This document shows positions 15,723 through 45,221 of a stretch of DNA of 64,000 nucleotides, one piece after another. The DNA lies in IMG/VR virus record IMGVR_UViG_3300042400_000444. One strand, 5' to 3'. A model generated the notes under the pieces. The model saw only the letters and a list, made by a program, of their open reading frames with translations. It had not been told where the DNA came from and did no database searches. Position 1 is the first letter of the stretch; each line of letters opens with the position of its first letter. A program made the translations under genes and the position numbers. Source of the stretch: a virus. Its lineage: Duplodnaviria > Heunggongvirae > Uroviricota > Caudoviricetes.

Positions 15723-15726
15723 ACAG

Positions 15727-15734
15727 TATTTATA
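15727..15734 (-). promoter_or_regulatory. T4-type late promoter box TATAAATA
   Basis: TATAAATA on the - strand, 4 nt before ATG 15722. Confidence 0.55.
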
Positions 15735-15748
15735 AGTGAATATTCCGC

Positions 15749-15777
15749 TTGACAAATTAGACAATCGGTAGTATAAT
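15749..15777 (+). promoter_or_regulatory. consensus sigma70 promoter
   Basis: TTGACA-N17-TATAAT. Confidence 0.85.
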
Positions 15778-23093: not shown

Positions 23094-23367
23094 GAAACCC
23101 GATACCCATCGTGTAAGATTCTTTACCAGCACATTTACCGATGATGTTGACACACAAATGTCTGACAGATTTTGGCGGATTGCTGAAGAATTTAAATTGA
23201 CTCCACAGGCAGAATGGGTAAAAGATAATGATATTACTCTGGCGTGGATGGAAGATGACATATACTATTCCTTTGGCAAGATGTGTATTATATACGGTGA
23301 CTTAACTGAAAGACAATATGTAGATTATAGTTTACGATTCTTTCAACACCAATCGGATTGGAAATGA
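23047..23367 (+). CDS. hypothetical protein
   Basis: 106-aa ORF filling the gap; exact start uncertain. Confidence 0.55.
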   Translation: MAMNHTQALKHQWQSKKPDTHRVRFFTSTFTDDVDTQMSDRFWRIAEEFKLTPQAEWVKDNDITLAWMEDDIYYSFGKMCIIYGDLTERQYVDYSLRFFQHQSDWK

Positions 23368-24350
23368 AAATAATAATCACTGGCGGCGCAGGGTTCATCG
23401 GACATAATGTAACTCGCATATTAGAAGAACAAGGGCACGAGTGCATCGTCGTTGATACTACAACAGACTATGGCTTTATACCAAAAAAGGAATTGAATTA
23501 TCTTAAATCTTCACGTAAAGAACGTTTTAACTCACGTGTCATACATACTGATATATGTAGCGTTAATCATATCGACAGTATTTTTAGCGCAGTACGTCCA
23601 GAGTTAGTAATACATCTCGCTAGCTTTCCGCGACAAAATGTAGTAAGCCAAAATCCAATACTAGGGTCAGAAGTAATGACTACTGGCCTAATCAATTTAC
23701 TCGAAGCAAGCACACGTTATAACATTAAGAAGTTTGTGTACATTAGCAGTTCAATGGTATATGGTGACTTTAAAGATGGCTTGTTCGATGGTGTCGACGA
23801 GTATGTTGATTGTAATCCAATTGGGCAATACGGCATTATGAAGTATATGGGCGAGAAACTTGTAGCTGATTATACTCGCCGTGGCTGCTTTGCGCATACT
23901 ATCATTCGCCCAAGTGCTGTATACGGTCCGTGGGATATCGAAGATAGAGTTGTTAGTAAGTTTATGCTTGCGGCAATGCGTGACGAAGTATTAAAAGTTA
24001 AAGGTGCTAATGAGGTGCTAGACTTTACATACGTCGAAGATACTGCAATGGGTATTGCTCAAGCCGCATTAAGCGATAATGCTAACAATAGAATTTACAA
24101 TATTACACGTTCATCAGAAGCAGAATATACATTGCTCGATGCCGCTAAACTTGCTGTAAGTATTGCGGGCAAAGGGAGTATTCAAGTTGCAGAACGTGAT
24201 TTAGCATTTCCAACACGTGGTAGATTAAGCATTACTAGTGCAGTCGCGGACTTTGGGTACAATCCAACAGTTAACGTAGAAGAAGGATTTGCTCGTTATC
24301 ATGAGTGGTTTAAATTCTCTCCTTACTGGCGTGACCAACTTCCGTTATGA
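23364..24350 (+). CDS. NAD-dependent NDP-sugar epimerase/dehydratase (extended SDR)
   Basis: TGGAGFIG, HLAS, SSSMVYG, YGIMK, VYGP, DFTYVED. Confidence 0.92.
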   Translation: MKIIITGGAGFIGHNVTRILEEQGHECIVVDTTTDYGFIPKKELNYLKSSRKERFNSRVIHTDICSVNHIDSIFSAVRPELVIHLASFPRQNVVSQNPILGSEVMTTGLINLLEASTRYNIKKFVYISSSMVYGDFKDGLFDGVDEYVDCNPIGQYGIMKYMGEKLVADYTRRGCFAHTIIRPSAVYGPWDIEDRVVSKFMLAAMRDEVLKVKGANEVLDFTYVEDTAMGIAQAALSDNANNRIYNITRSSEAEYTLLDAAKLAVSIAGKGSIQVAERDLAFPTRGRLSITSAVADFGYNPTVNVEEGFARYHEWFKFSPYWRDQLPL

Positions 24351-25438
24351 TTTCATTCTTTGGCATAGACCGACAATACAAAACAATCCGCGAAGAGATA
24401 CTTGAGGTCACTGACATAGTATATTCAAGCGGACAAGTATTAGATGGGCAATACACTAAAACGTTTGAACAGACTATTGCTAAGATGACAGAACGTAAAT
24501 ATGCTGTCGCTGTTAATAGTTGTACTCAAGCACTCGTCTTTGCGCTAAGAGCTGTTGACTTCTATTCTTTATTCCACAAAAATAAAGTACTAATCCCTTC
24601 ACAAAGTTTTGCCGCTACAGTCAATGTTGTATTCGAAGCTGGGTTTGAGCCCGTGTTCTGTGATGTCGATCCAATAACAGGATTAATTGATCTCGATGCT
24701 ATCCCAGTTGAGCCAGATGAAATTGCGGCTGTTATGTACGTTAACTTGTTTGGTAATATTATTGACTATGATAAGTTACAGACGTATGTTACGTTCTTTA
24801 ATAGTCATCGCATACCCGTAATCGAAGATGCGGCACAATCGTTTGGTGCATACTATCGCGGAGTACCAAGTGGCAAGTTAGGCGACATTAGTTGTTTAAG
24901 TTTTGACCCGACTAAGAATTTTCCAAACTATGGCAGTGGCGGAATGATACTAACTGATGATGCCGAGTTCGCTGAACTATGTCTTAATATGCGTGATAAT
25001 GGTAAGGTATCGGAACATTACACTGTTGGTACTAACAGCAAAATGAGCGAAGTTGATTGTGCTCAGATGTTAGTTAAGTTACGGCATTTTGATGCGTGGC
25101 AACAGCGTCGTAAGAACATTGCAGAATACTACACAGAAGAATTAGATGGGCCAGTGCAGATGATTCCTATACATCATAATGTCGAACATGCTTGGCATAA
25201 GTTTGTTATACACTATCCAGAACGTTCACGCTTATTCTCAGATTTACATGCAATGGGCATAGAAACTAAGATACATTATACTGCACCATTACACATGATG
25301 GGCGTAATTGGCGGACACGAAGTATTAGTTGGAGCAGAACAGTTTAGTAAAACGTGTTTGAGTTTACCAATCTATCCAGAAATGACTGATGCAGAAGTTG
25401 AAGCAGTTGTTGATGCTATTAAAGAGTGTACTTGGTAG
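24347..25438 (+). CDS. DegT/DnrJ/EryC1/StrS PLP-dependent sugar aminotransferase
   Basis: VNSCTQAL, IEDAAQSFGA, SFDPTKN..YGSGG, GTNSKM, SLPIYP. Confidence 0.92.
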   Translation: MISFFGIDRQYKTIREEILEVTDIVYSSGQVLDGQYTKTFEQTIAKMTERKYAVAVNSCTQALVFALRAVDFYSLFHKNKVLIPSQSFAATVNVVFEAGFEPVFCDVDPITGLIDLDAIPVEPDEIAAVMYVNLFGNIIDYDKLQTYVTFFNSHRIPVIEDAAQSFGAYYRGVPSGKLGDISCLSFDPTKNFPNYGSGGMILTDDAEFAELCLNMRDNGKVSEHYTVGTNSKMSEVDCAQMLVKLRHFDAWQQRRKNIAEYYTEELDGPVQMIPIHHNVEHAWHKFVIHYPERSRLFSDLHAMGIETKIHYTAPLHMMGVIGGHEVLVGAEQFSKTCLSLPIYPEMTDAEVEAVVDAIKECTW

Positions 25439-28238: not shown

Positions 28239-28749
28239 GTACTTGTTCTACTGTCAATCCACATTTAATTAAAAAATCAGCGCCTATTGTATCGCGATAT
28301 GATTGTGCATAATACACTTCTGTAATGCCAGCTTGATAAATTGTTTTTGCACAATCTAAACATGGGCAATGTGTAATAAAGATTGCTGAGCCTTGTGCTC
28401 CACCATTGAGTTTAGCAAGTTTCGAAATTGCATTTGACTCTGCGTGAAGTACAGTTGATTTTGTTTTCAATCTGTATCGACCAATGTAAGAATCATCTAA
28501 CTCCGACACTTCAACAAACGGCCATTTCTCATCTATCTCTTCAGGGTCAAGCCAACCACCAGCATCACTCGACATGTATTCTCGTTCTTCACATACGTTA
28601 TCCCATCCGCTGGGTTGTCCATTGTACCCAATAGAGATAATTGCATCATCTTTAACAATGATTGACCCAACTTGTAAGCGTACAGCACTCGAACATGCCG
28701 CATAATTAAATGCAGTGCGCATGTGTGCTAGTTTCATTTTATGCTTCAT
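28231..28749 (-). CDS. dCMP deaminase
   Basis: QVGSIIV, GYNG, HAESNAI, PCLDCAK. Confidence 0.9.
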   Translation of the reverse strand: MKHKMKLAHMRTAFNYAACSSAVRLQVGSIIVKDDAIISIGYNGQPSGWDNVCEEREYMSSDAGGWLDPEEIDEKWPFVEVSELDDSYIGRYRLKTKSTVLHAESNAISKLAKLNGGAQGSAIFITHCPCLDCAKTIYQAGITEVYYAQSYRDTIGADFLIKCGLTVEQVHV

Positions 28750-30236
28750 GATAACACCTTTACTCCGTATAGTTCTTCGAATCGATCTGCATCAGCACGA
28801 TCATTTATCATTGGTTCACCGCGTACATTTAAACTTGTATTAAGCAACATCGGACAACCTGTCCATGTATACCATAAACACAATAGTTCACGTATGCCAC
28901 TGTTATCACGTGGAACAGTCTGTACTCGACTTGTACCGTCTATATGTATTATAGCAGGAAATTCGTCAGGACGCAAGCACTTTGCAGTCGTTTGCATGTA
29001 CGGACTTGTTTTAAATCCATTGGGCATTTCAAAATACTCATCAACAAACTCCTCCAGTATTATAGGAGCAAATGGTCTAAACTGTTGTCTACGTTTGATT
29101 AAGTTTACAGCATCTTTAATATCAGGTCCACGTGGGTCAGCTAGTAAACTTCTGTTACCCAATGCTCTTGGTCCAAATTCTGCACGACCGTTAGCAACGC
29201 CAACAATCTTGTTTGTCATTAATTCAGACACAACATCGGCACAAGGATAAGGACCAGGAATATTGTGCCCGAGAAACGCATCTACCCAATTAAGTTTGCC
29301 TCCATGCGCAAGCGCCGCTGCCCCAAGACTGCTACCAGCATCACCAGGATTGGGCATAATCCAAATGTTATCAAAATATTCTCCCAAATCTCTATTAGCA
29401 CTACAGTTAAGCGCAACGCCGCCGGAGTATACTAAGTTACTACTAGGTGCTAATGTTTTTGCTTTATACATTATATTGTGTATTAATTGTTCTGTTAATG
29501 TCTGAGCCGCATTGGCTATTTCAAAATCATTCCATTTTGCTTTTATATCATTGTCGGGTAGACCGATATGTAAGTTATGTTTTAATGTTAGCTCAAACTC
29601 GTGGTCAACTAACCAATTTGAAAGTTGGTCACTTAAACGTGTTGTGTCTTGTTTTGCCCAACCCGCCATGCCCATTAAAATGTATTCTTCATCTAGCGGA
29701 CGCAAGCCAACTTCTTTAGTAAATGCACTGTACATTAAGCCGATGCTGTGTGGGTATAGTTGACGCCACACTCTTGTATATTGTGCCTTACCATTGACAT
29801 ATTTTGCAGACCATATGCTAATAGTATCCCACTCGCCAATTGCATCAATTACAACAACTGTTGCATCATCAAACGGGCTAGTTTGAAAGCCAGCGGCCGC
29901 ATGTGATAGGTGATGATTGTATGTTTTAATTGGAGTAGAACTTAACCACGGAGCGACTTTGTGTATCATGTTACGTACACTCCATCCTTTAGTTAGTTCA
30001 CTGTATTGTCCGGCGTAAAGTTGACGGGTCTTCTTAACCCACGGTCTTTCGTAGTATGCAATTAAATCGGGTTCGCCATAATTGAATACACAATCTCTAA
30101 GCATTTCAGCGTTTAAGTTTGGGTCGTGTTTAATTTTGCTATAACGTTCAGCATGACCTGCAAAGACAATATCGTCGCCTTTGATTAATGTAATTGCTGC
30201 ATCATGAAACCCAGCTGATATTCCTAATATATTCAT
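28746..30236 (-). CDS. O-carbamoyltransferase (NodU/CmcH/TobZ family)
   Basis: GISAGFHDAA, ERYSKIKHD, HHLSHAA, DAIGE, GGVALNC, PGDAG, EFGPRALGNRSLLADP, RPFAP, DGTSRVQTV, LNTSLN..GEP. Confidence 0.95.
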   Translation of the reverse strand: MNILGISAGFHDAAITLIKGDDIVFAGHAERYSKIKHDPNLNAEMLRDCVFNYGEPDLIAYYERPWVKKTRQLYAGQYSELTKGWSVRNMIHKVAPWLSSTPIKTYNHHLSHAAAGFQTSPFDDATVVVIDAIGEWDTISIWSAKYVNGKAQYTRVWRQLYPHSIGLMYSAFTKEVGLRPLDEEYILMGMAGWAKQDTTRLSDQLSNWLVDHEFELTLKHNLHIGLPDNDIKAKWNDFEIANAAQTLTEQLIHNIMYKAKTLAPSSNLVYSGGVALNCSANRDLGEYFDNIWIMPNPGDAGSSLGAAALAHGGKLNWVDAFLGHNIPGPYPCADVVSELMTNKIVGVANGRAEFGPRALGNRSLLADPRGPDIKDAVNLIKRRQQFRPFAPIILEEFVDEYFEMPNGFKTSPYMQTTAKCLRPDEFPAIIHIDGTSRVQTVPRDNSGIRELLCLWYTWTGCPMLLNTSLNVRGEPMINDRADADRFEELYGVKVLS

Positions 30237-30334
30237 TTATAAATAAATGGGTCACGTTTGCGCATTTCTTTTAATTTCTTACGATAGCGTAATTCCATCT
30301 TAATACGATTAATTATGTTTAAAAACCATTTCAT
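30233..30334 (-). CDS. 33-aa basic peptide ending in DPFIYK (absent from ORF track)
   Basis: MKWFLNIINRIKMELRYRKKLKEMRKRDPFIYK; ATGA overlaps with both neighbours. Confidence 0.75.
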   Translation of the reverse strand: MKWFLNIINRIKMELRYRKKLKEMRKRDPFIYK

Positions 30335-31557
30335 TGAAGTTCCCCTTTTTCAGTCTGCATTTTTCGACTACTAAAATCATATCCAGGTTGCATTGAGTCT
30401 ATTTGGTGTTGTTTATAATCAGAATCCGACCAACAATAATCAAACGTATGTTCGACTCCGTCTACTTCGATTTTATAAATATCTAAATGATTACTCAATT
30501 GATCCCATATTTCAAATGAATCAGTGGTACCAAAACTTTCCATTAATTCAACTTCGCCAATCGGCAAGTAGCCTAAACTCAATTTTTTATTAGTAGAGTC
30601 GATGCCATTGGATTCAAGCCATGCATAAAATTGAGTTAGTTCATCAACATGCCACCAATATTTTTCTTTATTGTATGTTACATCGTTGCCCCACTCGATA
30701 TCAAATTCACCGCTATAAAACTTCAATGAATTAATTGCATCGCAAGTGGCACCAGTATTCATACTAATATCTGTTGGGTCATTCCCTACAGTTAATTTTG
30801 GAGCATGCTCGTCGCGCCAGACTTCAAACAAGGTTTTTCCAATTTGAGTCCAATGCATATACACATGACCAAATTTTCTATCATACCCATTTGTAGTAAA
30901 TAGTTCTCTGTGTTCATCTGTTAATTCATGTCGTTTAGCATGAAGAAATGTAGTAATCTGACTAGGACGAATCCACTCGGGCATTACTGCTAACTTACGT
31001 TGACTTAATAGAATGTTTTCCATTTCGTGACATATAATATTTAATTGTCTAATAGCGTACTTAGTTTCATAATCTGCTAATTTGTAGTATGAACTTAAAT
31101 TCCATACTGTTCCTTGTAACAATTCAAAGTGATTATGTAATCTATTTAAAATTTCATGCTTTGGACTTAGTCCTATTTCAATATCGGGTCTGCCTCTGAG
31201 TGTGACGGGGTATGTGTCTGGGAAGCGTACAGTATTCGGGTGGAACCATTCTTCGATAATATACGATTGAAGACCGGCATCTTGCCAAGTATATGTTTGA
31301 TTAAATAAATTTATTGTCTCTATAGATTTGTTTAGTTCATCGCACAAGTATTCGACTGTCCTGGCAGACTTAGGAAATCCCAAAAAACAAAAGTTTTTCT
31401 CAAGTCGATCTTTAGATTGCAATATTTGTTTAAGTGCAACAACCCAATCTTTTGCAAGCGGATTATCGTATACTTTAATAGTGTATTCAAGTTGATCTGC
31501 AAAATCTAGCGGGTTGCGTAGTGTTACAGTTACTTTAGATTGATTGATACCATTCAT
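30331..31557 (-). CDS. hypothetical protein of the radical SAM cluster
   Basis: 408 aa, no CxxxCxxC; LNRLHNHFE and LNIICHEME motifs. Confidence 0.8.
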   Translation of the reverse strand: MNGINQSKVTVTLRNPLDFADQLEYTIKVYDNPLAKDWVVALKQILQSKDRLEKNFCFLGFPKSARTVEYLCDELNKSIETINLFNQTYTWQDAGLQSYIIEEWFHPNTVRFPDTYPVTLRGRPDIEIGLSPKHEILNRLHNHFELLQGTVWNLSSYYKLADYETKYAIRQLNIICHEMENILLSQRKLAVMPEWIRPSQITTFLHAKRHELTDEHRELFTTNGYDRKFGHVYMHWTQIGKTLFEVWRDEHAPKLTVGNDPTDISMNTGATCDAINSLKFYSGEFDIEWGNDVTYNKEKYWWHVDELTQFYAWLESNGIDSTNKKLSLGYLPIGEVELMESFGTTDSFEIWDQLSNHLDIYKIEVDGVEHTFDYCWSDSDYKQHQIDSMQPGYDFSSRKMQTEKGELQ

Positions 31558-32821
31558 ATACTGCCGGTCTCTCTTTTAATATGTCTGCTAGCGTATAGGT
31601 ATCTTTACGTATACTTTCTAATTGTAGCACACGTTGCTTACCTTTGTCAAGCTCTTTCTTATATGTATCAGGCCATTGCTCGTCGAACGTTGGTCGTGAT
31701 TTTAACTGTACAAGTATATCCTGCATAGCGCCAGAAGTTTGTGGAATTAGTTCATCTAACCATGGATGTAATATGTGGCGTGGTAGTGCAAGTGGACTAA
31801 GGATAATATCAGGGCTAAAGCTAAAAACAACTTTAGCCAGTATGTCTACGTTTTCTTCTTTAGCAAGCTGCATGATTTGTTTAACTTCAAACATGCCCGG
31901 CAGAGTGAGGGTGAAATCAATTCGCATTTGTCTTCGATTAGTTGCAATTCTAACTCCTTCACGGAAATTTTCAAGCCATTGATTATAATCAAGTCCTGTT
32001 CTAATATATTCTCCAATTGCGCCAGTTCCGTCGAGACTGGCACAGATTTGCCAATCGCGTAGCCCAGATAAAATGTCCCTATAGAGATTGACACCGCGAT
32101 AATTGACGCGGCTAAGATTAGTATTGTACCGTGCGTAAGCATGTTTGCCATCTCCTAAATCAATAATGCGTTTCATATAACGCCAGTGTTGTTCGTACAT
32201 TAGTGGCTCACCGCCGACCCAATATACTTCTTCAACTTGATGATTCTCGACTGCTTGAGCAAACTCCTGTTCTATTTGACTATCTTGAAATTTTGATATT
32301 TCTTCTCTTACGTCTGGCTTCATCCAATTGTTCTTTGGGTTATGCCAGTTAATCATATTATGTTGACGTTGCTCAGTTTCCCAAGCACTGCTTAACATAT
32401 CACCACACATACGACATTTAAAGTTACATAAGTTACTAAATCTATAATCCCAACTAACTGGGCGCATAGTTGTGTAACCCGTTGAATCTGTTGTGTCTGT
32501 TACTTGTAAATATTTATTACCAAACATCTGATCAAAATAACTACGGTAAACTGATGTATTCAACAGCTTATCATTACATACCTCACACTCTGGGAGGGTT
32601 TCCCCAGCAATCATGCGACGACGGACCGACCGCATGTGCTCGCTATTCCAGTGTTCATCTAGAGTTATTGGTATATAACGCCCTGTACCCGCCGAGACGT
32701 CGATATACTGTTGAAAGTTTTGTGCAGGTTCACGTGACGCACAGCACATACGTCTTTCAGTTTGTGGTGAAAGATATGTATGTACCCACGGTGCCAAACA
32801 TAATGTACTAGGCTTCGACAT
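31535..32821 (-). CDS. N-terminal twitch-domain radical SAM protein
   Basis: CLAPW, MCC, CEVC, then CNFKCRMC, GGEPL, YNTN, SLDG. Confidence 0.9.
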   Translation of the reverse strand: MSKPSTLCLAPWVHTYLSPQTERRMCCASREPAQNFQQYIDVSAGTGRYIPITLDEHWNSEHMRSVRRRMIAGETLPECEVCNDKLLNTSVYRSYFDQMFGNKYLQVTDTTDSTGYTTMRPVSWDYRFSNLCNFKCRMCGDMLSSAWETEQRQHNMINWHNPKNNWMKPDVREEISKFQDSQIEQEFAQAVENHQVEEVYWVGGEPLMYEQHWRYMKRIIDLGDGKHAYARYNTNLSRVNYRGVNLYRDILSGLRDWQICASLDGTGAIGEYIRTGLDYNQWLENFREGVRIATNRRQMRIDFTLTLPGMFEVKQIMQLAKEENVDILAKVVFSFSPDIILSPLALPRHILHPWLDELIPQTSGAMQDILVQLKSRPTFDEQWPDTYKKELDKGKQRVLQLESIRKDTYTLADILKERPAVYEWYQSI

Positions 32822-34025
32822 AACCCATTGCTAGTGCAATTTCTTTATGCGTAGTTAAGAAACTTTCATTACGATATGTATCTGTCGTTTGCATTTTGCG
32901 CATGAATTCCTGCCCGTTACTGCTGTTTCCATTTTCGATAAATTTAATAATACGAATTATTTCAGCTTTATGTCTAGGTGAAAAAGCATACTCTGACAGA
33001 CGTTGGATAACTAACTTATTTGCCGCAGGAGTCATATTGTTAATGTTCATGTGATTTGGATCATGCAACATATTAAAATATGTATGGTCAAATGTTTGTG
33101 TATTAATCCATTCACATAATTCTGGCAGATAGTACACGTTTTGTATATTGATAGTTAAACATATCTGTGTAGTAATTATATCATTGCGCATTGCATTGAA
33201 CTTAGCTATGTTTGTTTGTACTTCATCCCAGATTGCGCCATACCGTTCGTACTCAAATCGTGCGCCGACATTATCAATACTAAATGCAACTTCTACACGT
33301 TTAAATTGATTCCACAGTTCCGCTGCTTCCTCAGGAAATACTGTACCGTTTGTGTTGTAGTGTATTTCAATATCTCTACTATACCCATGCTCAACTGCAT
33401 AGCGCAATAGTTCAAAATGCTGTTCGATTAAGAATGGTTCACCACCAGTAAATTCAAAGTATTTGATGTTTGATAATAGTGATTTTAAGTTCTCCCAAAA
33501 ATCAACACTTTCTCTCGGCCATGCACCATCTGTTAAAAATTTATATGCCAAGTGTTGCTTGCGATCTGTTAACCCCACTACATAATCAATCTCTTCTTTA
33601 ACCCATTTACTACTAGACCAACTACCACATATACGACATTTTAGATTGCAAATATTACCTAGTTTTAAGTCAATGAACCACAGCTGATTAGGATTGGTAT
33701 TAGTCCAATCAATTTGATCGTAGTACTCTTTAAGACGAATTCTACTGTTTATGCGTTTACTTGCACGACCAGCATCTTCTTCATCCCAGCATCTTTTACA
33801 TGTTTCTGGTTTCTTGCCATCTAAAAACTCTTGACGTAAATTTTGCATATATGGACTATGATAAACTTCTTCTAATGTACTATCTCTAAGACTGTACTTA
33901 GTGCCATTGGGGCGAGTAATTTCGTCTATTGCTAAACAGCAAGGACGGGCAGTACTTATCGGACTAGTTTCAACACTAATCCACGGTATCATACATATAG
34001 TTTTGGGTAATTCGTTATTTGACAT
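32808..34025 (-). CDS. N-terminal twitch-domain radical SAM protein
   Basis: CMIPW, PCC, CKRCW, then CNLKCRIC, GGEPF, YNTNG, SIDN. Confidence 0.9.
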   Translation of the reverse strand: MSNNELPKTICMIPWISVETSPISTARPCCLAIDEITRPNGTKYSLRDSTLEEVYHSPYMQNLRQEFLDGKKPETCKRCWDEEDAGRASKRINSRIRLKEYYDQIDWTNTNPNQLWFIDLKLGNICNLKCRICGSWSSSKWVKEEIDYVVGLTDRKQHLAYKFLTDGAWPRESVDFWENLKSLLSNIKYFEFTGGEPFLIEQHFELLRYAVEHGYSRDIEIHYNTNGTVFPEEAAELWNQFKRVEVAFSIDNVGARFEYERYGAIWDEVQTNIAKFNAMRNDIITTQICLTINIQNVYYLPELCEWINTQTFDHTYFNMLHDPNHMNINNMTPAANKLVIQRLSEYAFSPRHKAEIIRIIKFIENGNSSNGQEFMRKMQTTDTYRNESFLTTHKEIALAMGYVEA

Positions 34026-35349
34026 ATGATCTCAACTCTGCATATTCTGGAAATACTTCTTCGAATGTTTCATTACGGACAACATCCACTTCATCATTGG
34101 CTTTAAAGAATTCTGCAAGGAACTGACTATTATCGGCTTGGTTTAAAAAGTTAATAATACCTTTATAACCACCAGTTGCACGACTAATTTTGTCTTGCGG
34201 TTCAAGCCATTTTATGTGCTCTTCAATTTTCTTAATTGCTTGTTGTTTATATACATCAGGTAATACATCTGCACGAATTCTATCTGGGCTTTGGCAAAGA
34301 TTAATATTCCAGTCCTGTGGTCGTATAAGTCCTTTCTCTGCCCAATCTCTATGAAAGTCCGTAACATGCAACACATTATACAAACTAACTGTGCTACTTA
34401 CATAAAAGTCTACATTTGGACAAACTTCTATCATTCTACGACGATTAGCTTCTGTTTGTGCCCAATCTTGCCCTTTGCGCATGTATTCGCCACGTGCATA
34501 ATTATCATCTAAACTTGCGCCAATGCTTACACTATCAAACAATTTCCAAAGTTCAAATACATCTTGCCCTTTGTATACCATTTCGCTAAAGTTAGTATTA
34601 TATATTAAACGAACGTGGAATAATTTTTGAGCTACCAATTCTTTAAGAATCATGTAATGCTCTTCCATGATAAGTGGTTCGCCACCTGCAAAGTATATTT
34701 GTTCTAAGTTAGGAATATGTTCTTGCATCTGCTCCCACATATCATACTTGTGGCGGCCAGCATATTCGACACTAGACATTTCTTTACCTAGCACTTCGGG
34801 CTTTTTACCATATAACTTAATATGGTCATTATACCAATTACTGCTAAAGATAGGACCACAGCTACGACAACGGAAATTACATAAATTACTAAAACGTACA
34901 TCATAATAACGTAATGTAAAATCATCTAAACTACCATCATCGTTAGTAGCATCACTTAGTTCAATCAAATGACCAAAATCCTTACTAAAGCTATTACGCA
35001 TACTAAAGAAACTATTGTCTTCTAGTTCGTAACACTTAGTACATTCTTTACACGGTTTATCATTTAACATGTTTGTACGCATCGTTCGCATAGGCGCATC
35101 ATTCCATACTTCTTCCATTGTATTTTTGCGCAAGTCACCAATCGGTTGCCACATTTCGCCTAAACAGCAAGGGTATGCTCTTCCGTCTGGAAACGCATGC
35201 ATATGAATCCACGGAAGTATGCAAAATACTTTACTTTCTGTCAATAATTCTTTGTGTTTTGCTGTTAAGTCAGTAGGGTCACAATATAAGGGCATGGTAC
35301 TATTATAATCATAGTTTTTAAAATTACCGTTTGTCTTTTTTATTTTCAT
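34015..35349 (-). CDS. N-terminal twitch-domain radical SAM protein
   Basis: CILPW, PCC, CTKCY, then CNFRCRSC, GGEPL, YNTN. Confidence 0.9.
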   Translation of the reverse strand: MKIKKTNGNFKNYDYNSTMPLYCDPTDLTAKHKELLTESKVFCILPWIHMHAFPDGRAYPCCLGEMWQPIGDLRKNTMEEVWNDAPMRTMRTNMLNDKPCKECTKCYELEDNSFFSMRNSFSKDFGHLIELSDATNDDGSLDDFTLRYYDVRFSNLCNFRCRSCGPIFSSNWYNDHIKLYGKKPEVLGKEMSSVEYAGRHKYDMWEQMQEHIPNLEQIYFAGGEPLIMEEHYMILKELVAQKLFHVRLIYNTNFSEMVYKGQDVFELWKLFDSVSIGASLDDNYARGEYMRKGQDWAQTEANRRRMIEVCPNVDFYVSSTVSLYNVLHVTDFHRDWAEKGLIRPQDWNINLCQSPDRIRADVLPDVYKQQAIKKIEEHIKWLEPQDKISRATGGYKGIINFLNQADNSQFLAEFFKANDEVDVVRNETFEEVFPEYAELRSYVK

Positions 35350-35416
35350 ATTATTCGATTTGTTTGTATGTAGTGTATTTAATGGTATTCAACAGGCCTG
35401 TTGATTTTTAGTAAGA

Positions 35417-36325
35417 TTATAAAGTAGTATTATTCCGAATAGCAATTACTTTTTTTTCTTCAGCATATATTTGATCACCAATATATACTTCTGGACAAAA
35501 TTTGCATTGCGGAATGGATCGGTTAAGGTTTTCTAAAAATTCTTTCTTAATTTCATATGTATCATCTATGCTTAACGGCACGTATGAATGCATTAATTCG
35601 GAATCTTCTGGCGACAACTGAATTGTGTGTTGCTTTGCAAATTTCGGCAAGATAGCAATAACTCCGCATTTATAAAGTTTACCATCAGAAAAAGTATGAC
35701 ACAATTTCATAGAACAATTATCGTGTGCTTTTTTTTCATCACTTTGGTACAATGTAAAATTATCTGCCTCAATATTTTGTATGAGAGTGCCCTGGTGGAA
35801 CCACCAGTTATGTTCTACTTTAAGTATGACCTTATTTGAATCGGTTAGCATCATATTTTCTTGATATTTGTTGCTGTAATCAAAATTATATGATATTTTT
35901 CCCTTTAAAAAACTCCTAACATTTTCCATTATTTGTGTTTTAAATCGTTTATTGTGAATACCTACGTGTATCTGTGTGTTAAATCTGTGTCTTAATAAGA
36001 ATTCATATAATCCAGCAACCTTAGTTAGTCTATATCCATTGGTAACTACACTCAGTGATGATCGAGGCCATAATGCGCGAATGTTACTAAACCAACTCAT
36101 AAACCCAGGGTGCAATAATGGTTCCCCGCCTAATATACCTATTGTTCCTATTTGTAATTCTGCAGCCCATTGTGTGTATATAATCTTATATTCGTCCCAT
36201 TGTTGTTGGCCTGTAAATTTAAAATTATTAAATCTGTTACACCCAGTACATGCTAAATTACAAACATTAGTGATATAAAATTCAACAGACAACAATTTGA
36301 GTTTAGGATTGTTAAGTGGAATCAT
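35417..36325 (-). CDS. radical SAM protein with C-terminal Cys cluster
   Basis: ITNVCNLACTGC, GGEPL, TNG; C-terminal CSMKLC, KLYKC, CKFCP. Confidence 0.88.
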   Translation of the reverse strand: MIPLNNPKLKLLSVEFYITNVCNLACTGCNRFNNFKFTGQQQWDEYKIIYTQWAAELQIGTIGILGGEPLLHPGFMSWFSNIRALWPRSSLSVVTNGYRLTKVAGLYEFLLRHRFNTQIHVGIHNKRFKTQIMENVRSFLKGKISYNFDYSNKYQENMMLTDSNKVILKVEHNWWFHQGTLIQNIEADNFTLYQSDEKKAHDNCSMKLCHTFSDGKLYKCGVIAILPKFAKQHTIQLSPEDSELMHSYVPLSIDDTYEIKKEFLENLNRSIPQCKFCPEVYIGDQIYAEEKKVIAIRNNTTL

Positions 36326-37656
36326 AGTGTTTCGTACCAGTTAGTTAATTGCTTAAACGTGTATTTAAAGTCTTTACCACGACGTTGGTCATATTGCTGA
36401 TAAAAGTTTTTAAAGTCGTATAATAAATTATCATCAACTTGGGTGTCTTGCTGTAAGTATTCAACTAAACGTTTAATATGTTCATGTTCATGTTCGTGTA
36501 ATGCTTCATTCTTGCTATTGTTAAATAGAAATTCACTAAGCTCTTTGCTATACGTTGCACGTAGCTCGACGGGTAATATCATTGGACTTTGAAAGCTAGG
36601 AAAGCGCAATATGTTTAACGTAAACGACAATGCTTCGCGACCATACTTCTCTTTTAGCTTCATCATGTTGTATAAGAATTCACTAAGGCTCGGCAAACAC
36701 AGCGCATTGATTGTACACATGACATGTATGCCACGTACTTTTTTAGTTTCAAGTAAGAATACTAAATTACCAACCCATTGTTTCCATTCTAATCCATCAC
36801 GTATATATTCGGCGTGTGTGCCCATTGCCTCATTGCTAGTGTAGATGTCAAGTTCAATACCCTGTGTGCTATCAAGCAAGCGTTCAAGTATATCGCGTTT
36901 AAACCCGAGATTACTGTTAATTGCAAGACGTGTTTTACTTTCACCTTTGTGTGCTTTGAACCAATCAATTAAACGCCATGTGTTGTCTGACATTAATGGC
37001 TCGCCGCCTGTAATGCGTAACTCTTTTAATGTTTTGTGTAAGTCTGTTTCCCACCATTTGAAGAACGCTTCGACATATGGATTAACTTCATTGAGTTTAA
37101 ACAATTGACTACTATTATGCTCATGAGTAAAGTGATTTCTGCCATCTGAAACCAAATTGGTGTATGCGCCGTTTTGATGTATATCCCTAACCCAACTAGT
37201 GCTAAAAGCAGGATTGCAGTAAGAACAAGCAAACTGACAAGTTCTGTCAAAGGCAATTTCCAAAGTTTGTAAGTTAACATCTTCGCTTGCAGGTAAATTG
37301 TATGCATAATCTAAGTCCTTATCATTATAAATTACAGTTTTGTACACACGGTCACTAACTGCATCTGTGCTCATGTCTTCTATTTTCCAGCAGTAATCAC
37401 AGCCCGCGGGTCGTTCCCCTACTTGCATTTGTCTACGTTGTTCTTTCTTTTGTGGAGTGTTGTGTATTGCACTTGGATTTGTTTTAATTGCTTCTATATC
37501 GATTTGATGTGGTAGCGGATGATGGCAACTTGTAGTCTGCCCTGACCCTAACCATATAGTAGCATTATACCATTTAGCCGCACAGAATGATTCTGACTTA
37601 ATGTCAATTACTCTACGCTTATATTCTAAATCTGTTTCATTATTAATTTTTGGCAT
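36322..37656 (-). CDS. N-terminal twitch-domain radical SAM protein
   Basis: CAAKW, SCHHP, CDYCW, then CQFACSYC, GGEPL. Confidence 0.9.
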   Translation of the reverse strand: MPKINNETDLEYKRRVIDIKSESFCAAKWYNATIWLGSGQTTSCHHPLPHQIDIEAIKTNPSAIHNTPQKKEQRRQMQVGERPAGCDYCWKIEDMSTDAVSDRVYKTVIYNDKDLDYAYNLPASEDVNLQTLEIAFDRTCQFACSYCNPAFSTSWVRDIHQNGAYTNLVSDGRNHFTHEHNSSQLFKLNEVNPYVEAFFKWWETDLHKTLKELRITGGEPLMSDNTWRLIDWFKAHKGESKTRLAINSNLGFKRDILERLLDSTQGIELDIYTSNEAMGTHAEYIRDGLEWKQWVGNLVFLLETKKVRGIHVMCTINALCLPSLSEFLYNMMKLKEKYGREALSFTLNILRFPSFQSPMILPVELRATYSKELSEFLFNNSKNEALHEHEHEHIKRLVEYLQQDTQVDDNLLYDFKNFYQQYDQRRGKDFKYTFKQLTNWYETL

Positions 37657-37695
37657 TAAATTTATTTAACCTGTTAGTTGTACCGACGTTTAAAA

Positions 37696-38826
37696 TCAAT
37701 ATACGGATTGGTGCACTATTTTATCGGCAGTATAGTTGCATAGTATGTCAATCAGCAAGTTATGTTCTGGATGAGTTGTATCACCTATGTTAAGTTGTCT
37801 AAATTCATCTGTAGGCCATGTACCCCAATTCCACATTTTAGATAAATTGATATTATCAAACCCCAATGATTTTACAATGTCGATATACTGCGGAATTTCT
37901 TTGTAATTGTTGCGTTGTACTACAAAATCGCTTAGTAAGTTAATTTTATGCTCGGACTGACTATCTATTAATTGTCTTATATACTGACAATTTTCTAGTA
38001 ACGTATCCCACTCACCATTTACTCTAATTGTCTTATAAGTTTCGGCTGTTCCGGCATCGAAACTAATACGTAATTGATCGATGTATGGTAAAAAAATTTT
38101 TAATAAAGCTGATCGTTTTGTTAAATAACTTCCGTTGGTTTGAATAATATTTCGTATCTTTGTATTACCCTTGGATATTATGTATTCCCATAATTCTAAA
38201 TATGCATGACTAACAAACGGCTCACCGCCTGCCCATCTAATAGTTAACGGAGTATTTGATTCAACATATCTATCTATTATTAAATGTTTAATTTTTTCTA
38301 CTAATTGTTGATTTATCGATGATCGTGGGCCCATATTATAATTTATAATATCTGTTCTACAAGATGGGCATTTAAAATTGCATGTGTAATCGAAATCAAG
38401 GCAAATTTCCGATGGTAATTTTTTTGTTTTACTTGATGCAGTGAACTGGTCTTCTTCTAGTAAGATAAAATCCGCTGGAGTTGCTTCTTCTATCGAGATT
38501 ATTTTAGTTTTTGATTCAGCCGTCGAAAGGTGGCTACATAGTTTTTGATTGCAGTAAGTATAGCGATTAGATGCAACTTCACTACGAATCGATCTTGCTT
38601 CGTAACTATTAAGTAGATCAAAAATGTCAGTGTAATCAAGAATCGATCCAATACTTTTAGGTAACCAAGCAGGGCTAGCACATATATAAGTTGACCCAGA
38701 TTCATTTATTACTAATCTGCCCCACGGATTCCTGCATCTTTTTACGCCTGTAGCGTGTTTGTCAAATAAGATATGATCATTATTTTTGCGCTGGTGGTAA
38801 TCTTCAATAACTATTATTTCTTTCAT
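37696..38826 (-). CDS. radical SAM protein with N-terminal Cys domain
   Basis: CRNPW, YCNQKLC, then CNFKCPSC, GGEPF, TNG, SFDAGT.ETY. Confidence 0.88.
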   Translation of the reverse strand: MKEIIVIEDYHQRKNNDHILFDKHATGVKRCRNPWGRLVINESGSTYICASPAWLPKSIGSILDYTDIFDLLNSYEARSIRSEVASNRYTYCNQKLCSHLSTAESKTKIISIEEATPADFILLEEDQFTASSKTKKLPSEICLDFDYTCNFKCPSCRTDIINYNMGPRSSINQQLVEKIKHLIIDRYVESNTPLTIRWAGGEPFVSHAYLELWEYIISKGNTKIRNIIQTNGSYLTKRSALLKIFLPYIDQLRISFDAGTAETYKTIRVNGEWDTLLENCQYIRQLIDSQSEHKINLLSDFVVQRNNYKEIPQYIDIVKSLGFDNINLSKMWNWGTWPTDEFRQLNIGDTTHPEHNLLIDILCNYTADKIVHQSVY

Positions 38827-38833
38827 TTATACC

Positions 38834-40222
38834 TTATGTCTCGGCATGGTATTTGCACTCCTGCCAGAACTCTGTCATCTGTGGGAATGTTTCCAAAAAG
38901 TTTAATCCTCTGCGTTTATCGTATTCATTAAAAAATCTATAGAAGTCTGCTCTTTGTATTGTAACATATTCCTTCGAGAGTTCGCAACCTTGTTTCATCC
39001 AATCTACATTGCGTTCCATACGTTGTATCTCATAATCTTTAAATCCTTCAAAGTTATCAGCAGTTTCATCTGCTTGATTTGCTTTCATAAATTCAACAAC
39101 ATCTTCTAATATGCGAACATAACTTGCTGGTAGTATTTGTAAACTTTGATACGTTGGGCTACGTAATAGCGGCGTGTCGAACCATACACGTTGATATGTT
39201 GAGCTGTATTTTTTACGCATCTCTAATATCTGTGTCAATAAAAGTTTTAATCCAAGTATGTTCAAGTTGTTCATTGTAATAATAAACGTTAGGCTATTGC
39301 GGTATGGCACGTCTGTTAGGAAAGCGTTAGAATATCGCATGACTCTGTCCCAGTATAGCCCATCGCGTATATATTCTGCATGTGCAGGAAGCCCAGTATC
39401 TAGACTAACATACTGCATAAAGTGTTCAATGCGTTCGCCTGTGCATAGTTGTTTAACTTTGTCTAAATACTTTTCAAATAATTGTGGCTCGACACTAAAG
39501 TTACTTGTTACATCAACGTGCAAGTCACTCTTAGGCAAGGCGAGTATGTAATCAAATACACGATGTGTATTCTTATCCATAAGCGGTTCGCCACCAGTCA
39601 TTCTAAAGTGTTTTAGCTTAGGATACAGCTCGGGCCACCAAGCCCAAAATGCATCAACATACGGGTTAGCTTCGCGTACCGGAATTGGCTTACGTCGACC
39701 TTGAAAGTGTTCGGGCGCATTGTGCGGAGTGCTTGTTGGATATGCACCCCATCTGTCAATATCTTTGCCCCACTCTGTTGAATACTGTGGACTGCAATAG
39801 CTACATGCTAAGTTACAGCCATGACTGAAGTTTACTTCAACATAACTTGGTACAACGTCTTGGTCCCATGGTGCGTTTACTATTTCTTCATAGTGTTCAG
39901 CCGCCCACGGCTCACCGGAACGATAGTGTCTATCGCTTAGTTGTTTGTTATCTTCTGCACTCCAACAGTAACTACATTCTGCTGGGCGTGTTTGCTCTAG
40001 CATAAGTTTACGTTGCTGTTTCTTGTAATCAGTATTGTGTAGCGCACCCGGATTGAATAGCAACGGAGCACTGTCGATCTCGTGCAATGGCGGATGATAG
40101 CAACTATTTGTTAGTCCGGTTGGTAGATGTAGACTTACTTGTTGCCACTTAGCCAAGCAAAGTGCAGGACCTAATTTGTCCTTCATCTCTTCTGCGGCTG
40201 TTAGGAAATTACTTTTTGTCAT
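38834..40222 (-). CDS. N-terminal twitch-domain radical SAM protein
   Basis: CLAKW, SCYHP, CSYCW, then CNLACSYC, GGEPL; likely start MTKSNF. Confidence 0.9.
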   Translation of the reverse strand: MTKSNFLTAAEEMKDKLGPALCLAKWQQVSLHLPTGLTNSCYHPPLHEIDSAPLLFNPGALHNTDYKKQQRKLMLEQTRPAECSYCWSAEDNKQLSDRHYRSGEPWAAEHYEEIVNAPWDQDVVPSYVEVNFSHGCNLACSYCSPQYSTEWGKDIDRWGAYPTSTPHNAPEHFQGRRKPIPVREANPYVDAFWAWWPELYPKLKHFRMTGGEPLMDKNTHRVFDYILALPKSDLHVDVTSNFSVEPQLFEKYLDKVKQLCTGERIEHFMQYVSLDTGLPAHAEYIRDGLYWDRVMRYSNAFLTDVPYRNSLTFIITMNNLNILGLKLLLTQILEMRKKYSSTYQRVWFDTPLLRSPTYQSLQILPASYVRILEDVVEFMKANQADETADNFEGFKDYEIQRMERNVDWMKQGCELSKEYVTIQRADFYRFFNEYDKRRGLNFLETFPQMTEFWQECKYHAET

Positions 40223-41198
40223 GGGCAAAATATCCAGGATTGTCATTCATAAGTTGGGATTGCTCTTTACTCATTTTGAGTAATAAATTGTAATTATGTT
40301 CTATGTCGGGCTGGCATTTATCTAATATAGCTGCCATCGAATTGTTATCGAGTATATCTTCTAATATCTGAAATACGTCATCGACTCGGGTGAATTCATC
40401 CCATTTATCATAATAATCAGGAATAATATCTTCGAACGTTTTGAATCCGATAGAACGTAATTTCTTTAAATAATTTTTTGCGCCGATTATTAAGAACGGT
40501 CGGCGATAATATATCGGGCGCAATGTCTTCTCTGTAATTAAAAATGAATCTGGATGTACACCTGTTTCACAAACTATTTCTATTGCTATCTGCTCATATA
40601 CAGTGTGCCATAATGGACCAACTGTGTTCAAATTTAACCAAATTGGCGGCTTACGTATAGAATCTATATCGCTGTACGGTCTAATAGAAGTGATATCATT
40701 AATTTTACAATCTGCATATTGACTAACTTTAGCAAGATCGACATTAGTATCGATATCCATAAAATCCTGACTAAAACTAGTTAGCCCCATTTCCTTATAC
40801 GGGCTTCTTCGGTATCGCAATAAACTATAAATGCGTTCTCTACGAGCAAGACCTATAAACATGCCGAATACCTTATTGCCATTCCACGGTATCGGATCTT
40901 TATGTGTAGTAAAATGTACAAAATCAGAATTATAAGTAGCTTTACGTACTGCATATACACTATGTTTTTCTAACCAGTTGTTTGTTTCTATAACGATTTT
41001 AGTCTTATCAAAATTCCAATATTCACAAAGGATGTCTAGTAGATTAAATAATCCATTTTCTTCAAAACTGTTACCTTCATATGTTCGTATAATTATATCA
41101 TCATTTGTTAGCATTGCCCGAATTATTTCAGAACATAGTAATTCTTTATTAAGTAGCTCATAACGAGTATCATACTTGGTAATTTCTATCACAACCAT
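40209..41198 (-). CDS. putative GT-B glycosyltransferase (GT10-like donor-binding motif)
   Basis: IEIVCET...FLITEKTLRPIYYRRPFLIIG resembles the fucosyltransferase E-N/T...Y/F-x-TEK motif. Confidence 0.5.
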   Translation of the reverse strand: MVVIEITKYDTRYELLNKELLCSEIIRAMLTNDDIIIRTYEGNSFEENGLFNLLDILCEYWNFDKTKIVIETNNWLEKHSVYAVRKATYNSDFVHFTTHKDPIPWNGNKVFGMFIGLARRERIYSLLRYRRSPYKEMGLTSFSQDFMDIDTNVDLAKVSQYADCKINDITSIRPYSDIDSIRKPPIWLNLNTVGPLWHTVYEQIAIEIVCETGVHPDSFLITEKTLRPIYYRRPFLIIGAKNYLKKLRSIGFKTFEDIIPDYYDKWDEFTRVDDVFQILEDILDNNSMAAILDKCQPDIEHNYNLLLKMSKEQSQLMNDNPGYFAHDKK

Positions 41199-42043
41199 TT
41201 AATTTTTTTCTCCGAGATGTTGTCCGAATGATTGATAACTGACTCAACATCGTCGAGAGTAGGACACATACTACACATTGCATTGGGCTTACTGAAATTA
41301 TTTAAAAAATCAGTTAACTCATTGTCATTACAATCCACTCCTAAACCAGTTTGCAAGTAAGGAGTCCATTCTGCAATATTAGGATTACCGAATCGTTCAA
41401 GTGTGTCCACTAGTAAACCACTTGTACTGCATTTATAAATCCGACCATTATGCATAAGTGGACAGGTTTTCTGACAGCATGCATCAAATGCACTTGCAGG
41501 ATTGTTCCTGTGCGGCTGCATATTTGCATACGTTCCTTTAAAAGATTTAGTAAACACGGTGGGCCGATTAATTTGAAAACGAAAATTATTCGATGTTTTC
41601 CAACGGTTGATGCCGTATTCTGTAACAGGCTCCCAGGGATAATCATTAAATATACGTTGGATAATCTCTTCTAGTTGTACATCAGGGCGATGCACTGTGA
41701 TTTTAAATACACAATTACCTATATCTGCTAAGGTACTAACTATATTATATTTCTTATGCAATAATAGCCCGTTGGTAGTAAAACGTATTTGTGTATCGGG
41801 CATCAATTCTCTGGCGCCAAATATCCAATCAGTTACTTCAGGATTTATCAACGGCTCACCGCCCATAATTCCAAAATCGGGTATATCTATCTTCTTTTGC
41901 CAAGCAGTTAGCCATTCGCGACCAGTCGACCACGGCACGTAGCCGTCGTGCTGTAAGTCAGAATAGTTAGTACACCCGGTGCAACTCAGATTACACACCT
42001 GAGTTATCATCGTTTCAAGGAAAGGTAATGTCGGTTTACTCAC
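41189..42043 (-). CDS. radical SAM protein with C-terminal Cys cluster
   Basis: ITQVCNLSCTGC, GGEPL, TNG; CCQKTC, RIYKC, CSMCP; likely GTG start at 42043 (ORF extends to 42073). Confidence 0.88.
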   Translation of the reverse strand: MSKPTLPFLETMITQVCNLSCTGCTNYSDLQHDGYVPWSTGREWLTAWQKKIDIPDFGIMGGEPLINPEVTDWIFGARELMPDTQIRFTTNGLLLHKKYNIVSTLADIGNCVFKITVHRPDVQLEEIIQRIFNDYPWEPVTEYGINRWKTSNNFRFQINRPTVFTKSFKGTYANMQPHRNNPASAFDACCQKTCPLMHNGRIYKCSTSGLLVDTLERFGNPNIAEWTPYLQTGLGVDCNDNELTDFLNNFSKPNAMCSMCPTLDDVESVINHSDNISEKKIKWL

Positions 42044-42932
42044 GTGACATAGGGCCTTTATTTTTAAATACACTTTTGTAATGATGCTTAAAGAATTTAC
42101 TTTGGTCTGCTGTTAAATGTGGTGCGGGTAATCCTAATTTTACATTTAATGTATGTGACATTTCATTGCATTCTTCTACTAAGTTTAGTACTTTGTTTTG
42201 ATGCCAAATTTTATCCAATGCATCAAAGTCTTGTACTTCTCTATAATCCCAATCTGTAATCATAGTCATATATGTGCCAAGTTTAGCACCGTACATTGCC
42301 CAGTCGCCATTTTCTACGTCCATGCCTACATTATGCCATATGCTTAAATGATCGTAGTTCCGATCATGTACACGCTTCTCAAAATCTAATAGATTTGGCT
42401 TAGTGCCGCGATCTAAACACATCTTTACGCCTTCTCTAAAACCTGCTCGCCATGCTTGATACGGACTTTGATTTGGGTATGTTGTGCTGTAGCAATCATT
42501 CATTGCCCAATAGCGTGGGTCAAAGCAAAACTCAACGGCAGTATCATCTGCACCATCACTTGCTTCGTGTGTACGCATATTGTTTACAAAGTCTTTAGTC
42601 CAACAACTCATGCCACCGTTGCCATACATAAGTCCGTTGATGTGATTACGTGCTTTCCATCGAAATACTACATCTTTATTGGTATCATCTAATGTAAGTT
42701 GTAAGTTAAAGAATTCTGGATCGGGTAAGTTGTCACCATCAATTAATACAAAGCGGTCGGTATCACTAACAGACGCGGCCGCTTTGTGTGCGGCATCACT
42801 GCCTTTAACTCCATCTACACGTTTAGCCCACGGAACCATATTTTGAATCTTAATCCAAAACTCTTCTTTTTTGGGTTCATCGTAACTTAGGTAAATGCAA
42901 TCTAAGTCTGCAATATCAACGATTTGTGTCAT
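42036..42932 (-). CDS. putative GT-A glycosyltransferase
   Basis: IYLSYDEP, AHKAAA, FVLIDGDN (DxD), YGNGG, WRAGFREGVK. Confidence 0.65.
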   Translation of the reverse strand: MTQIVDIADLDCIYLSYDEPKKEEFWIKIQNMVPWAKRVDGVKGSDAAHKAAASVSDTDRFVLIDGDNLPDPEFFNLQLTLDDTNKDVVFRWKARNHINGLMYGNGGMSCWTKDFVNNMRTHEASDGADDTAVEFCFDPRYWAMNDCYSTTYPNQSPYQAWRAGFREGVKMCLDRGTKPNLLDFEKRVHDRNYDHLSIWHNVGMDVENGDWAMYGAKLGTYMTMITDWDYREVQDFDALDKIWHQNKVLNLVEECNEMSHTLNVKLGLPAPHLTADQSKFFKHHYKSVFKNKGPMSRE

Positions 42933-45132: not shown

Positions 45133-45163
45133 ATAAGTAATTATCTTAATAAAATATAGCCAA

Positions 45164-45192
45164 AATAAAAGCACTGAGATAGTGCTTTTATT
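45164..45192 (-). terminator. intrinsic terminator after the tail-fibre genes (possibly bidirectional)
   Basis: Perfect 12-bp inverted repeat AATAAAAGCACT-gagat-AGTGCTTTTATT. Confidence 0.75.
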
Positions 45193-45221
45193 ATAATACA
45201 TTATGTGTTATCTGTCAACTA

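Follow-up and report, generated by a model that had tools for sequence, protein, structure and literature searches.

The minus strand of a 64,000-nucleotide stretch of viral DNA (IMG/VR virus record IMGVR_UViG_3300042400_000444; Caudoviricetes), the whole of which is referred to here as the window, carries at 31535-42073 an array of eight genes for radical S-adenosylmethionine (SAM) enzymes. As a preliminary description of the sequence had stated, the eight genes are clustered and intact, each being an uninterrupted open reading frame (ORF) with a single CX3CX2C motif. These genes are not equivalent: five of them (rS1, rS2, rS3, rS5 and rS7) form a fixed core of the phage group, and the remaining three (rS4, rS6 and rS8), along with the non-radical SAM gene 40209, are swappable accessories. 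We put at about 0.55 the probability that the array edits, by radical chemistry in the cytoplasm, a glycan that the phage makes and that is probably borne by a virion protein, and we rank four rival explanations below this reading.

The array is made of nine tightly packed ORFs, mostly overlapping by 4-38 nt, and every gene of the window from 25419 to 63917 is on the minus strand (hereafter, genes other than rS1 to rS8 are named by their lower coordinate). The core genes are rS1 (31535..32821; 428 amino acids), rS2 (32808..34025; 405 amino acids), rS3 (34015..35349; 444 amino acids) and two genes of a second type, termed B, rS5 (36322..37656; 444 amino acids) and rS7 (38834..40246; 470 amino acids); all five code for radical SAM proteins with an N-terminal twitch module. 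Two of the accessory genes, rS4 (35417..36325; 302 amino acids, with the CX3CX2C motif at residue 22) and rS8 (41189..42073; 294 amino acids), code for short radical SAM proteins with a C-terminal twitch-like Cys module, and rS6 (37696..38826; 376 amino acids) for a divergent N-terminal-twitch protein of a third type, C. The start of rS8 had been placed at 42043; the ORF runs on to 42073, but 42043 is an in-frame GTG that gives a protein of 284 amino acids and a better fit to the homologue in a related locus, L005. Gene 40209 (40209..41198; 329 amino acids) lies between rS7 and rS8. A satellite paralogue of rS6, also of C type and on the minus strand, is found at 14730..15764, and, with QueE and a B12-dependent-type radical SAM gene at 9417, brings the total for the window to 11 radical SAM genes, as previously counted.

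The distinction between core and accessory genes emerged from a set of 27 IMG/VR contigs encoding an orthologue of rS3 (52-96% identity). At least 24 IMG/VR contigs keep the order 42036, rS7, rS5, rS3, rS2, rS1, 30331 and carbamoyltransferase, and in most relatives rS7 directly follows the orthologue of 42036. The accessory genes have a very different distribution. No orthologue of rS4 was found in the 27 loci; rS6 is present in two of them, with 21 IMG/VR relatives at 41-61% identity; and rS8 has a single homologue, the one in L005 (58% identity). Pattern scans of IMG/VR likewise found no relatives of rS4 or rS8. The slots between core genes are occupied in the relatives by one to three copies of the 40209 family, further radical SAM genes, a B12-radical SAM gene, a hexapeptide acyltransferase or pieces of DegT. 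In the closest relative, L001, the core genes are 92-97% identical to those of the window and the accessory genes are different. A 97%-complete relative of 338 kb codes for eight members of NF033640, the family of the core proteins (see below), above the cut-off, and for rS5 the metagenome homologues number more than 8000 at E<1e-10.

A tree of 98 sequences places every core gene in a separate clade of orthologues, with a Shimodaira-Hasegawa-like approximate likelihood ratio (SH-aLRT) support of 99-100 (100 for the rS1 and rS2 clades), a long stem and one member per phage contig. The duplications are thus older than the phage group. The rS5 and rS7 clades are sisters (SH-aLRT 99), and the backbone towards the bacterial sequences is poorly supported. 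The cluster Cys residues are 100% conserved in the 22-25 orthologues of each core gene; for rS1, these are Cys 8, 26, 27, 79 and 82 plus the CX3CX2C motif at 132, in 22 orthologues. Against L001, and at synonymous distances (dS) of 0.3-0.45 that are not saturated, the ratio of non-synonymous to synonymous substitutions (dN/dS) is 0.114 for rS1, 0.104 for rS2, 0.058 for rS3, 0.095 for rS5 and 0.056 for rS7. The view that the paralogues are diverged and intact is therefore borne out, by their age in the tree and by purifying selection; relaxed selection or pseudogenisation, which had been offered as grounds for rejecting it, is ruled out by the low dN/dS and the invariant cluster Cys.

The five core proteins match NF033640 (N_Twi_rSAM in NCBIfam) end to end, with 293.3 bits for rS1, 344.8 for rS2, 386.2 for rS3, 295.7 for rS5 and 284.8 for rS7, against a curated whole-protein cut-off of 170 bits. 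This is the N-terminal-twitch family, with no function assigned, to which the preliminary description had alluded, and it has the same domain order as the core proteins, a twitch Cys module followed by CX3CX2C. Below the cut-off are rS6 (81.6 bits), 14730 (49.7 bits), rS4 (23.2 bits) and rS8 (25.2 bits), although rS6 and 14730 do have an N-terminal SPASM-type module. Pfam Radical_SAM is recognised in all eight array proteins, PF04055 being above its cut-off in five and just below it in rS1, rS3 and rS5. A Pfam SPASM-type domain precedes the core in rS1, rS2 (residues 11-80, with Radical_SAM at 122-293), rS3 (residues 43-106; 42.7 bits) and rS6 (residues 31-93; Radical_SAM at 46.7 bits), and the satellite 14730 has SPASM at residues 19-84 (37.9 bits) together with Radical_SAM.

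The auxiliary Cys domain was said to be mostly N-terminal, and indeed the pattern CX9-15GX4C...CX2C precedes the core in six of the eight proteins. The full seven-Cys motif of SPASM domains is absent; the N-terminal modules hold from four (B type) to six Cys residues, which fits a single-cluster twitch module. In rS4 and rS8 the module comes after the core, and an alignment with the L005 homologue reveals five invariant Cys, at C204, C209, G215-x4-C220 and C274xxC277, a CX4C...GX4C...CX2C pattern that corresponds to the usual C-terminal arrangement. The aligned SAM-binding motif is G-GEP in the six proteins with an N-terminal module and GGEP in rS4 and rS8. BLASTP and alignments reproduced the four motif groups first described and all of the motifs quoted for them: group A, rS1, rS2 and rS3 (21-28% mutual identity); group B, rS5 and rS7 (33% identity, E 2e-71); group C, rS6 and the distant 14730 (30% identity, E 2e-27); and group D, rS4 and rS8 (25% identity, E 1e-24). 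Group A holds as a similarity group but not as a clade, since the tree joins rS1, weakly, to group B (SH-aLRT 81). Orthology to cofactor-pathway enzymes, which had been named as a way in which the proposal might fail, is rejected for MoaA (22-42 bits, cut-off 284), PqqE (at most 29.4 bits, cut-off 381) and anSME (25.4 bits, cut-off 349), all of them far under their cut-offs.

By its sequence, the window belongs to a giant phage of the Rak2/Atu_ph07 type; a baseplate-type protein encoded at 49222 shares 50-54% identity with proteins from Atu_ph07 and Sinorhizobium phage Phosso. Tail-fibre-like genes and a gene for a 3816-amino acid protein are located directly upstream of the island that holds the array, and the island follows tail-fibre genes in all of the relatives. 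Among sequenced isolates, hits were confined to Ralstonia phage RsoM2USA (two copies) and three Vibrio phages. The local unit in RsoM2USA consists of two GT8-like genes, a homologue of 42036, a B-type radical SAM gene (51% identity to rS5) and a second 42036-like gene. In the isolated 255-kb Vibrio phage K566 (L139; OZ196521.1 161548-165950), three annotated radical SAM genes are found within five consecutive ORFs, one of them a tblastn match to rS3 at 24.5% identity. As to hosts, the cultured relative RsoM2USA infects Ralstonia. A separate 2.5-kb contig binned with a metagenome-assembled genome (MAG) of an uncultured Polynucleobacter (L030; CAYVBV010000193.1) encodes an rS3 orthologue (58% identity); it is either phage DNA carried over in binning or a clue to the hosts.

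The core is headed by 42036 (42036..42932; 298 amino acids), which codes for a putative transferase resembling glycosyltransferases of the A fold (GT-A) and has an orthologue in 24 loci. The D65-G-D67 motif is invariant across the orthologues, and dN/dS is 0.067. Scans of family libraries gave no family hit for the protein. Its AlphaFold2 model (pLDDT 80) has GT-A and nucleotidyltransferase matches over residues 3-145 (Z 6-8.2) and a best Foldseek E-value of 5e-3; the matches include viral GT-A proteins, among the weak ones PBCV-1 A64R and the glycosyltransferase of mycobacteriophage Che8. With the 42036 family as profile, 1419 related clusters were retrieved from 1.8 billion representative proteins. 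Many of these relatives are tandem duplications, or fusions of about 740 amino acids in which the domain stands behind a GT-B glycosyltransferase (EryCIII_C, UDPGT or GT28_C, above cut-off), and Pfam GT2 was found in two, below the cut-off only. Residues 713-904 of a 939-amino acid protein encoded at 25419-28238 (minus strand) are also homologous to 42036 (26% identity, E 9e-12), with the DGD motif replaced. Next to 42036 are two paralogous GT8-like (GT-A) candidates, 43259 (43259-44074) and 44061 (44061-44846), both conserved in RsoM2USA. Their families align with an hhalign probability of 98.2% (E 4e-14), and the 43259 profile has a weak match to glycogenin-1 (GT8; E 0.012) that covers the nucleotide-sugar and DxD region.

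At the other end, the core is closed by 30331 (30331..31557), a gene for a conserved partner of 408 amino acids with an orthologue in 24 loci. Identity to the L001 orthologue (L001:14827-15999) falls to 66%, against 92-98% for the genes on either side, a divergence suggestive of a swapped cassette or of a specificity determinant in rapid evolution. The confident model of 30331 (pLDDT 85) resembles a cyclophilin-like barrel with a helical insert only at Z 7-8, which is the noise range of a wide structural search, and has no Foldseek match. Nothing usable for 42036 or 30331 was found in the ESM Atlas, and PDB profile searches with the 42036, 30331, 40209 and 44061 families gave nothing significant. 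The uncharacterised multi-copy family of 40209 is a candidate transferase. The protein itself has no hit in Pfam, PHROG or NCBIfam, and 20 family members gave no meaningful Pfam family, the lone DUF3592 hit (E 0.01) being at chance level. Only one of the 120 homologues listed has a Pfam domain: P0489, a 623-amino acid metagenome protein in which a 40209 relative is fused to a DegT/DnrJ aminotransferase domain, and this is the sole functional clue for the family.

Beyond 30331 lies a NodU/CmcH-type carbamoyltransferase gene (28746..30236; Pfam Carbam_trans_N and Carbam_trans_C), which follows the core in 21 loci; homologues adjoin N-terminal-twitch radical SAM genes in three Bdellovibrionota loci and in RsoM2USA. 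A 33-codon ORF on the minus strand (30233-30334), ending in DPFIYK, exactly spans the gap between the two genes. On the plus strand, 23358..25438 codes for a nucleoside diphosphate (NDP)-sugar epimerase/dehydratase together with a DegT aminotransferase (Pfam Epimerase 1.9e-40; DegT_DnrJ_EryC1 4.9e-87), a probable source of sugars. No hydrophobic (membrane) segment is predicted for any enzyme encoded between 23358 and 42932, which places the pathway in the cytoplasm.

In cellular genomes the family is sparse. Of 401 Pseudomonadota genomes that were sampled, two have NF033640 members; 14 control genomes have none. Among species-representative genomes, a profile scan returned 76 loci, whose genes were called by a simple ORF rule, from many phyla, Bdellovibrionota being prominent, and 38 of the 76 hold two to six copies. 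One of the two Pseudomonadota genomes is a Zetaproteobacteria MAG, in which four tandem copies are bounded by RmlD and Wzm at one end and, at the other, by a TylF O-methyltransferase, a further methyltransferase and a WbsX glycosyltransferase; the copy that comes first forms a single ORF of 854 amino acids with Wzt, the ATPase of the O-antigen exporter. The culturable Methylocystis rosea SV97 likewise has a Wzm-Wzt-radical SAM-TylF-WbsX cassette. Other fusions join a radical SAM protein to a WbsX glycosyltransferase (1206 amino acids; Acidobacteria) and to a methyltransferase (899 amino acids; a Polaromonas MAG). The 125 neighbours tallied in 22 loci came most often from the following families: additional Radical_SAM proteins, GT2, SAM methyltransferases, WbsX, sulfotransferases, TylF, GT1/GT4 and parts of Wzm/Wzt. 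In a Desulfobacterales MAG, an ORF of 1124 amino acids (L049:14471-17845) combines a TylF O-methyltransferase, a WbsX glycosyltransferase and a second methyltransferase, 3 kb from an N-terminal-twitch radical SAM gene.

The GT-A-like neighbours in the phage, taken with the bacterial loci and the Wzt, WbsX and methyltransferase fusions, point to a glycan as the substrate. We infer the kind of reaction from the behaviour of other twitch enzymes on carbohydrates, and the acceptor from the position of the island beside fibre genes. A glycan substrate had been proposed before, and it stands as the best-supported reading; the proposals that the enzymes act at different positions of one glycan, that a tail fibre is the acceptor and that a particular chemistry is involved did not gain the same support. 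In the pathway that we propose, the GT-A-like transferases 44061, 43259 and 42036 would build a sugar chain from sugars supplied by the epimerase/dehydratase and the DegT aminotransferase. The five fixed radical SAM enzymes and the swappable extras would then each use a 5'-deoxyadenosyl radical to abstract a hydrogen from a particular sugar position, with the front [4Fe-4S] cluster as redox partner, and the outcome of a step could be an epimerisation, an oxidation, a deoxygenation or a similar edit. Each conserved paralogue would be responsible for one site or step, the product would be varied by the accessory cassettes, and the NodU/CmcH-type enzyme would add a carbamoyl group. The acceptor would probably be a virion protein encoded just upstream, for example a fibre. 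A broader version of the proposal, in which NF033640 as a whole is an undescribed class of glycan-editing radical enzymes acting on sugars after their incorporation into a chain, and in which the five enzymes plus extras write a heavily edited and variable sugar coat on the fibres of giant phages, is tentative and in our opinion rather doubtful; if it were true, specificity or an arms race would be determined by the accessory cassettes together with 30331, the mosaic partner.

Several observations weigh against a tailored virion glycan. The GT-A assignment of 42036 relies on middling structural scores (Z at most 8.2) and sub-threshold Pfam GT2 matches, and sequence and structure searches gave no identity for 30331 or 40209. 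NF033640 has no assayed member and no solved structure, the nearest PDB chains matching the generic core only (18-38 bits), and a literature search found no paper on the family. The paper on RsoM2USA makes no mention of these genes, and virion proteins with glycans are not known from this phage group. The tally of bacterial neighbours has no background control, and polysaccharide marker genes occur in just 16 of the 49 longer bacterial loci. Lastly, a dCMP deaminase gene inside the operon leaves room for a DNA-linked sugar.

Indeed, the enzymes could serve DNA hypermodification, tailoring sugars or side chains on phage DNA bases so as to shield the genome from host nucleases. Known pathways of this kind in phages use glycosyltransferases, pyridoxal phosphate enzymes and a radical SAM enzyme, all of the enzymes considered here are soluble and cytoplasmic, and the window also contains a thymidylate synthase gene and the 7-deazaguanine genes FolE, QueE and QueD. 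However, the deaminase is found at this spot in only some relatives, and inspection of the island revealed no gene for a base-hydroxymethylase, a DNA kinase or DpdA. Moreover, the bacterial relatives sit in loci for exported polysaccharides and are fused to Wzt or WbsX rather than to DNA enzymes, and tail-fibre genes precede the island in all related phages. We regard this explanation as unlikely, though it is the strongest of the four. Somewhat less probable still is that the enzymes are protein or peptide maturases, like the SPASM/twitch enzymes for peptides that are made by ribosomes and modified post-translationally (RiPPs), introducing cross-links or epimerised residues into a virion protein or a small phage peptide. 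SPASM/twitch radical SAM enzymes are best known in that role, structural genes adjoin the array and the array proteins have weak NCBIfam matches to many such maturases, but all of these matches stay at 15-57 bits, where the cut-offs are 265-850. What stands in front of the core is a twitch module rather than a peptide-recognition domain, although no separate search for such domains was made. In place of peptidases or precursor peptides, the neighbours in phages and in bacteria are sugar enzymes; beside the core, the related loci share no conserved precursor gene that is Cys-rich or repeated.

The product could also be a soluble small molecule, such as a sugar compound akin to aminoglycosides or nucleosides, or a sugar nucleotide of an unusual kind, aimed at the host or at competitors. 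A DegT aminotransferase, an NDP-sugar dehydratase, a TobZ-like carbamoyltransferase and several twitch-type radical SAM enzymes together resemble an aminoglycoside cluster, and soluble enzymes with an acceptor still to be identified would suit this possibility, to which we give about as little weight as to peptide maturation. Three to four GT-A-like transferases, and relatives fused to GT-B enzymes, point instead to a polymer or a glycoconjugate; the link of the bacterial homologues to an O-antigen exporter and the fixed position beside fibre genes also argue against it. Finally, the placement of bacterial relatives in O-antigen-type loci might suggest that a surface polysaccharide of the host is remodelled during infection, for example to block superinfection. 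We find this very improbable, as neither a flippase, a polymerase or an ABC exporter nor any other membrane protein is encoded in the island, and as the isolated relative RsoM2USA has been described as lytic and would gain little from seroconversion.

Radical tailoring of a phage-made glycan has partial counterparts in known systems. With respect to the catalogued NF033640 family, what differs in the phage is the presence of a fixed set of five paralogues plus swappable extras, of which rS6, like the satellite 14730, falls below the cut-off and rS4 and rS8 are not members. Twitch radical SAM enzymes that act on carbohydrates include BtrN, SpeY, HygY, NeoN, AprD4 and BlsE. In enzymes of the BtrN/BlsE type a single auxiliary [4Fe-4S] module accompanies the radical SAM core, as is probable for the array, and sugars are also the substrates that we propose for the array; however, their twitch module is C-terminal, the reverse of the order in six of the array proteins, and their substrates are small molecules of antibiotic pathways. 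BlsE is among the nearest solved chains, but over the core only (27 bits). No type of reaction can be carried over from these enzymes, though the array proteins may conceivably work in a similar way. The peptide and protein maturases (anSME, SkfB, PqqE and the sactipeptide and ranthipeptide synthases) share the superfamily and the auxiliary-cluster logic, and SkfB is the best PDB match (37.9 bits, core only); the array differs from them in its reversed domain order, its sugar-related gene context and scores far under their cut-offs.

The Wzm/Wzt ABC-transporter pathway tailors O-polysaccharides, for example by terminal methylation. The bacterial homologues, with one Wzt fusion, sit among Wzm/Wzt, TylF-type O-methyltransferases and WbsX, whereas the exporter and the membrane components are absent from the phage island. 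We know of no radical SAM step described for that pathway, and a literature search found no paper on such a step in Wzt-type O-antigen synthesis. Virus-encoded glycosylation of virions is known from chlorovirus A64R, the fibril glycans of mimivirus and mycobacteriophage glycosyltransferases; in these systems, as with the GT-A-like candidates of the phage, cytoplasmic GT-A transferases and sugar-nucleotide enzymes are borne by the virus, but to our knowledge none of them has an array of radical SAM enzymes. The family was already catalogued, but its permuted domain order, its set of five paralogues fixed in the phages and its ties to glycosyltransferases set the array apart from known systems of carbohydrate-type twitch radical SAM chemistry. 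NF033640 is abundant, and radical SAM enzymes carry out chemistry that is otherwise hard to reach; the bacterial fusions and the GT-A-like partners in phages make sugar substrates a sensible first test, for which RsoM2USA, an isolated phage with a minimal version of the system, is a workable experimental model. If the proposed glycan tailoring is correct, radical editing would join the known repertoire of virus-made glycans, and the retention of five or more costly Fe-S enzymes by a large environmental group of giant phages would be accounted for.

As for other features of the region, promoter-like and terminator-like sites in and around the array occur at chance level, and the signature TAAATA-N3-8-ATG is not enriched in the window (9 matches against 16 expected from shuffled sequences), its only occurrence in the array being at rS5. 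A perfect sigma-70 consensus (TTGACA, 17 nt, TATAAT) is found at 45190-45218 on the minus strand, overlapping the start of a gene for a 128-amino acid protein (44815-45201); such sites, too, are at chance level regionally. Two core genes contain alternative-frame ORFs on the same strand, of about 101 codons in rS1 (31846-32151) and about 93 codons in rS5 (37026-37307). ORFs of similar length and without matches recur at corresponding spots in many related loci, and the two in the array are probably a by-product of codon usage.

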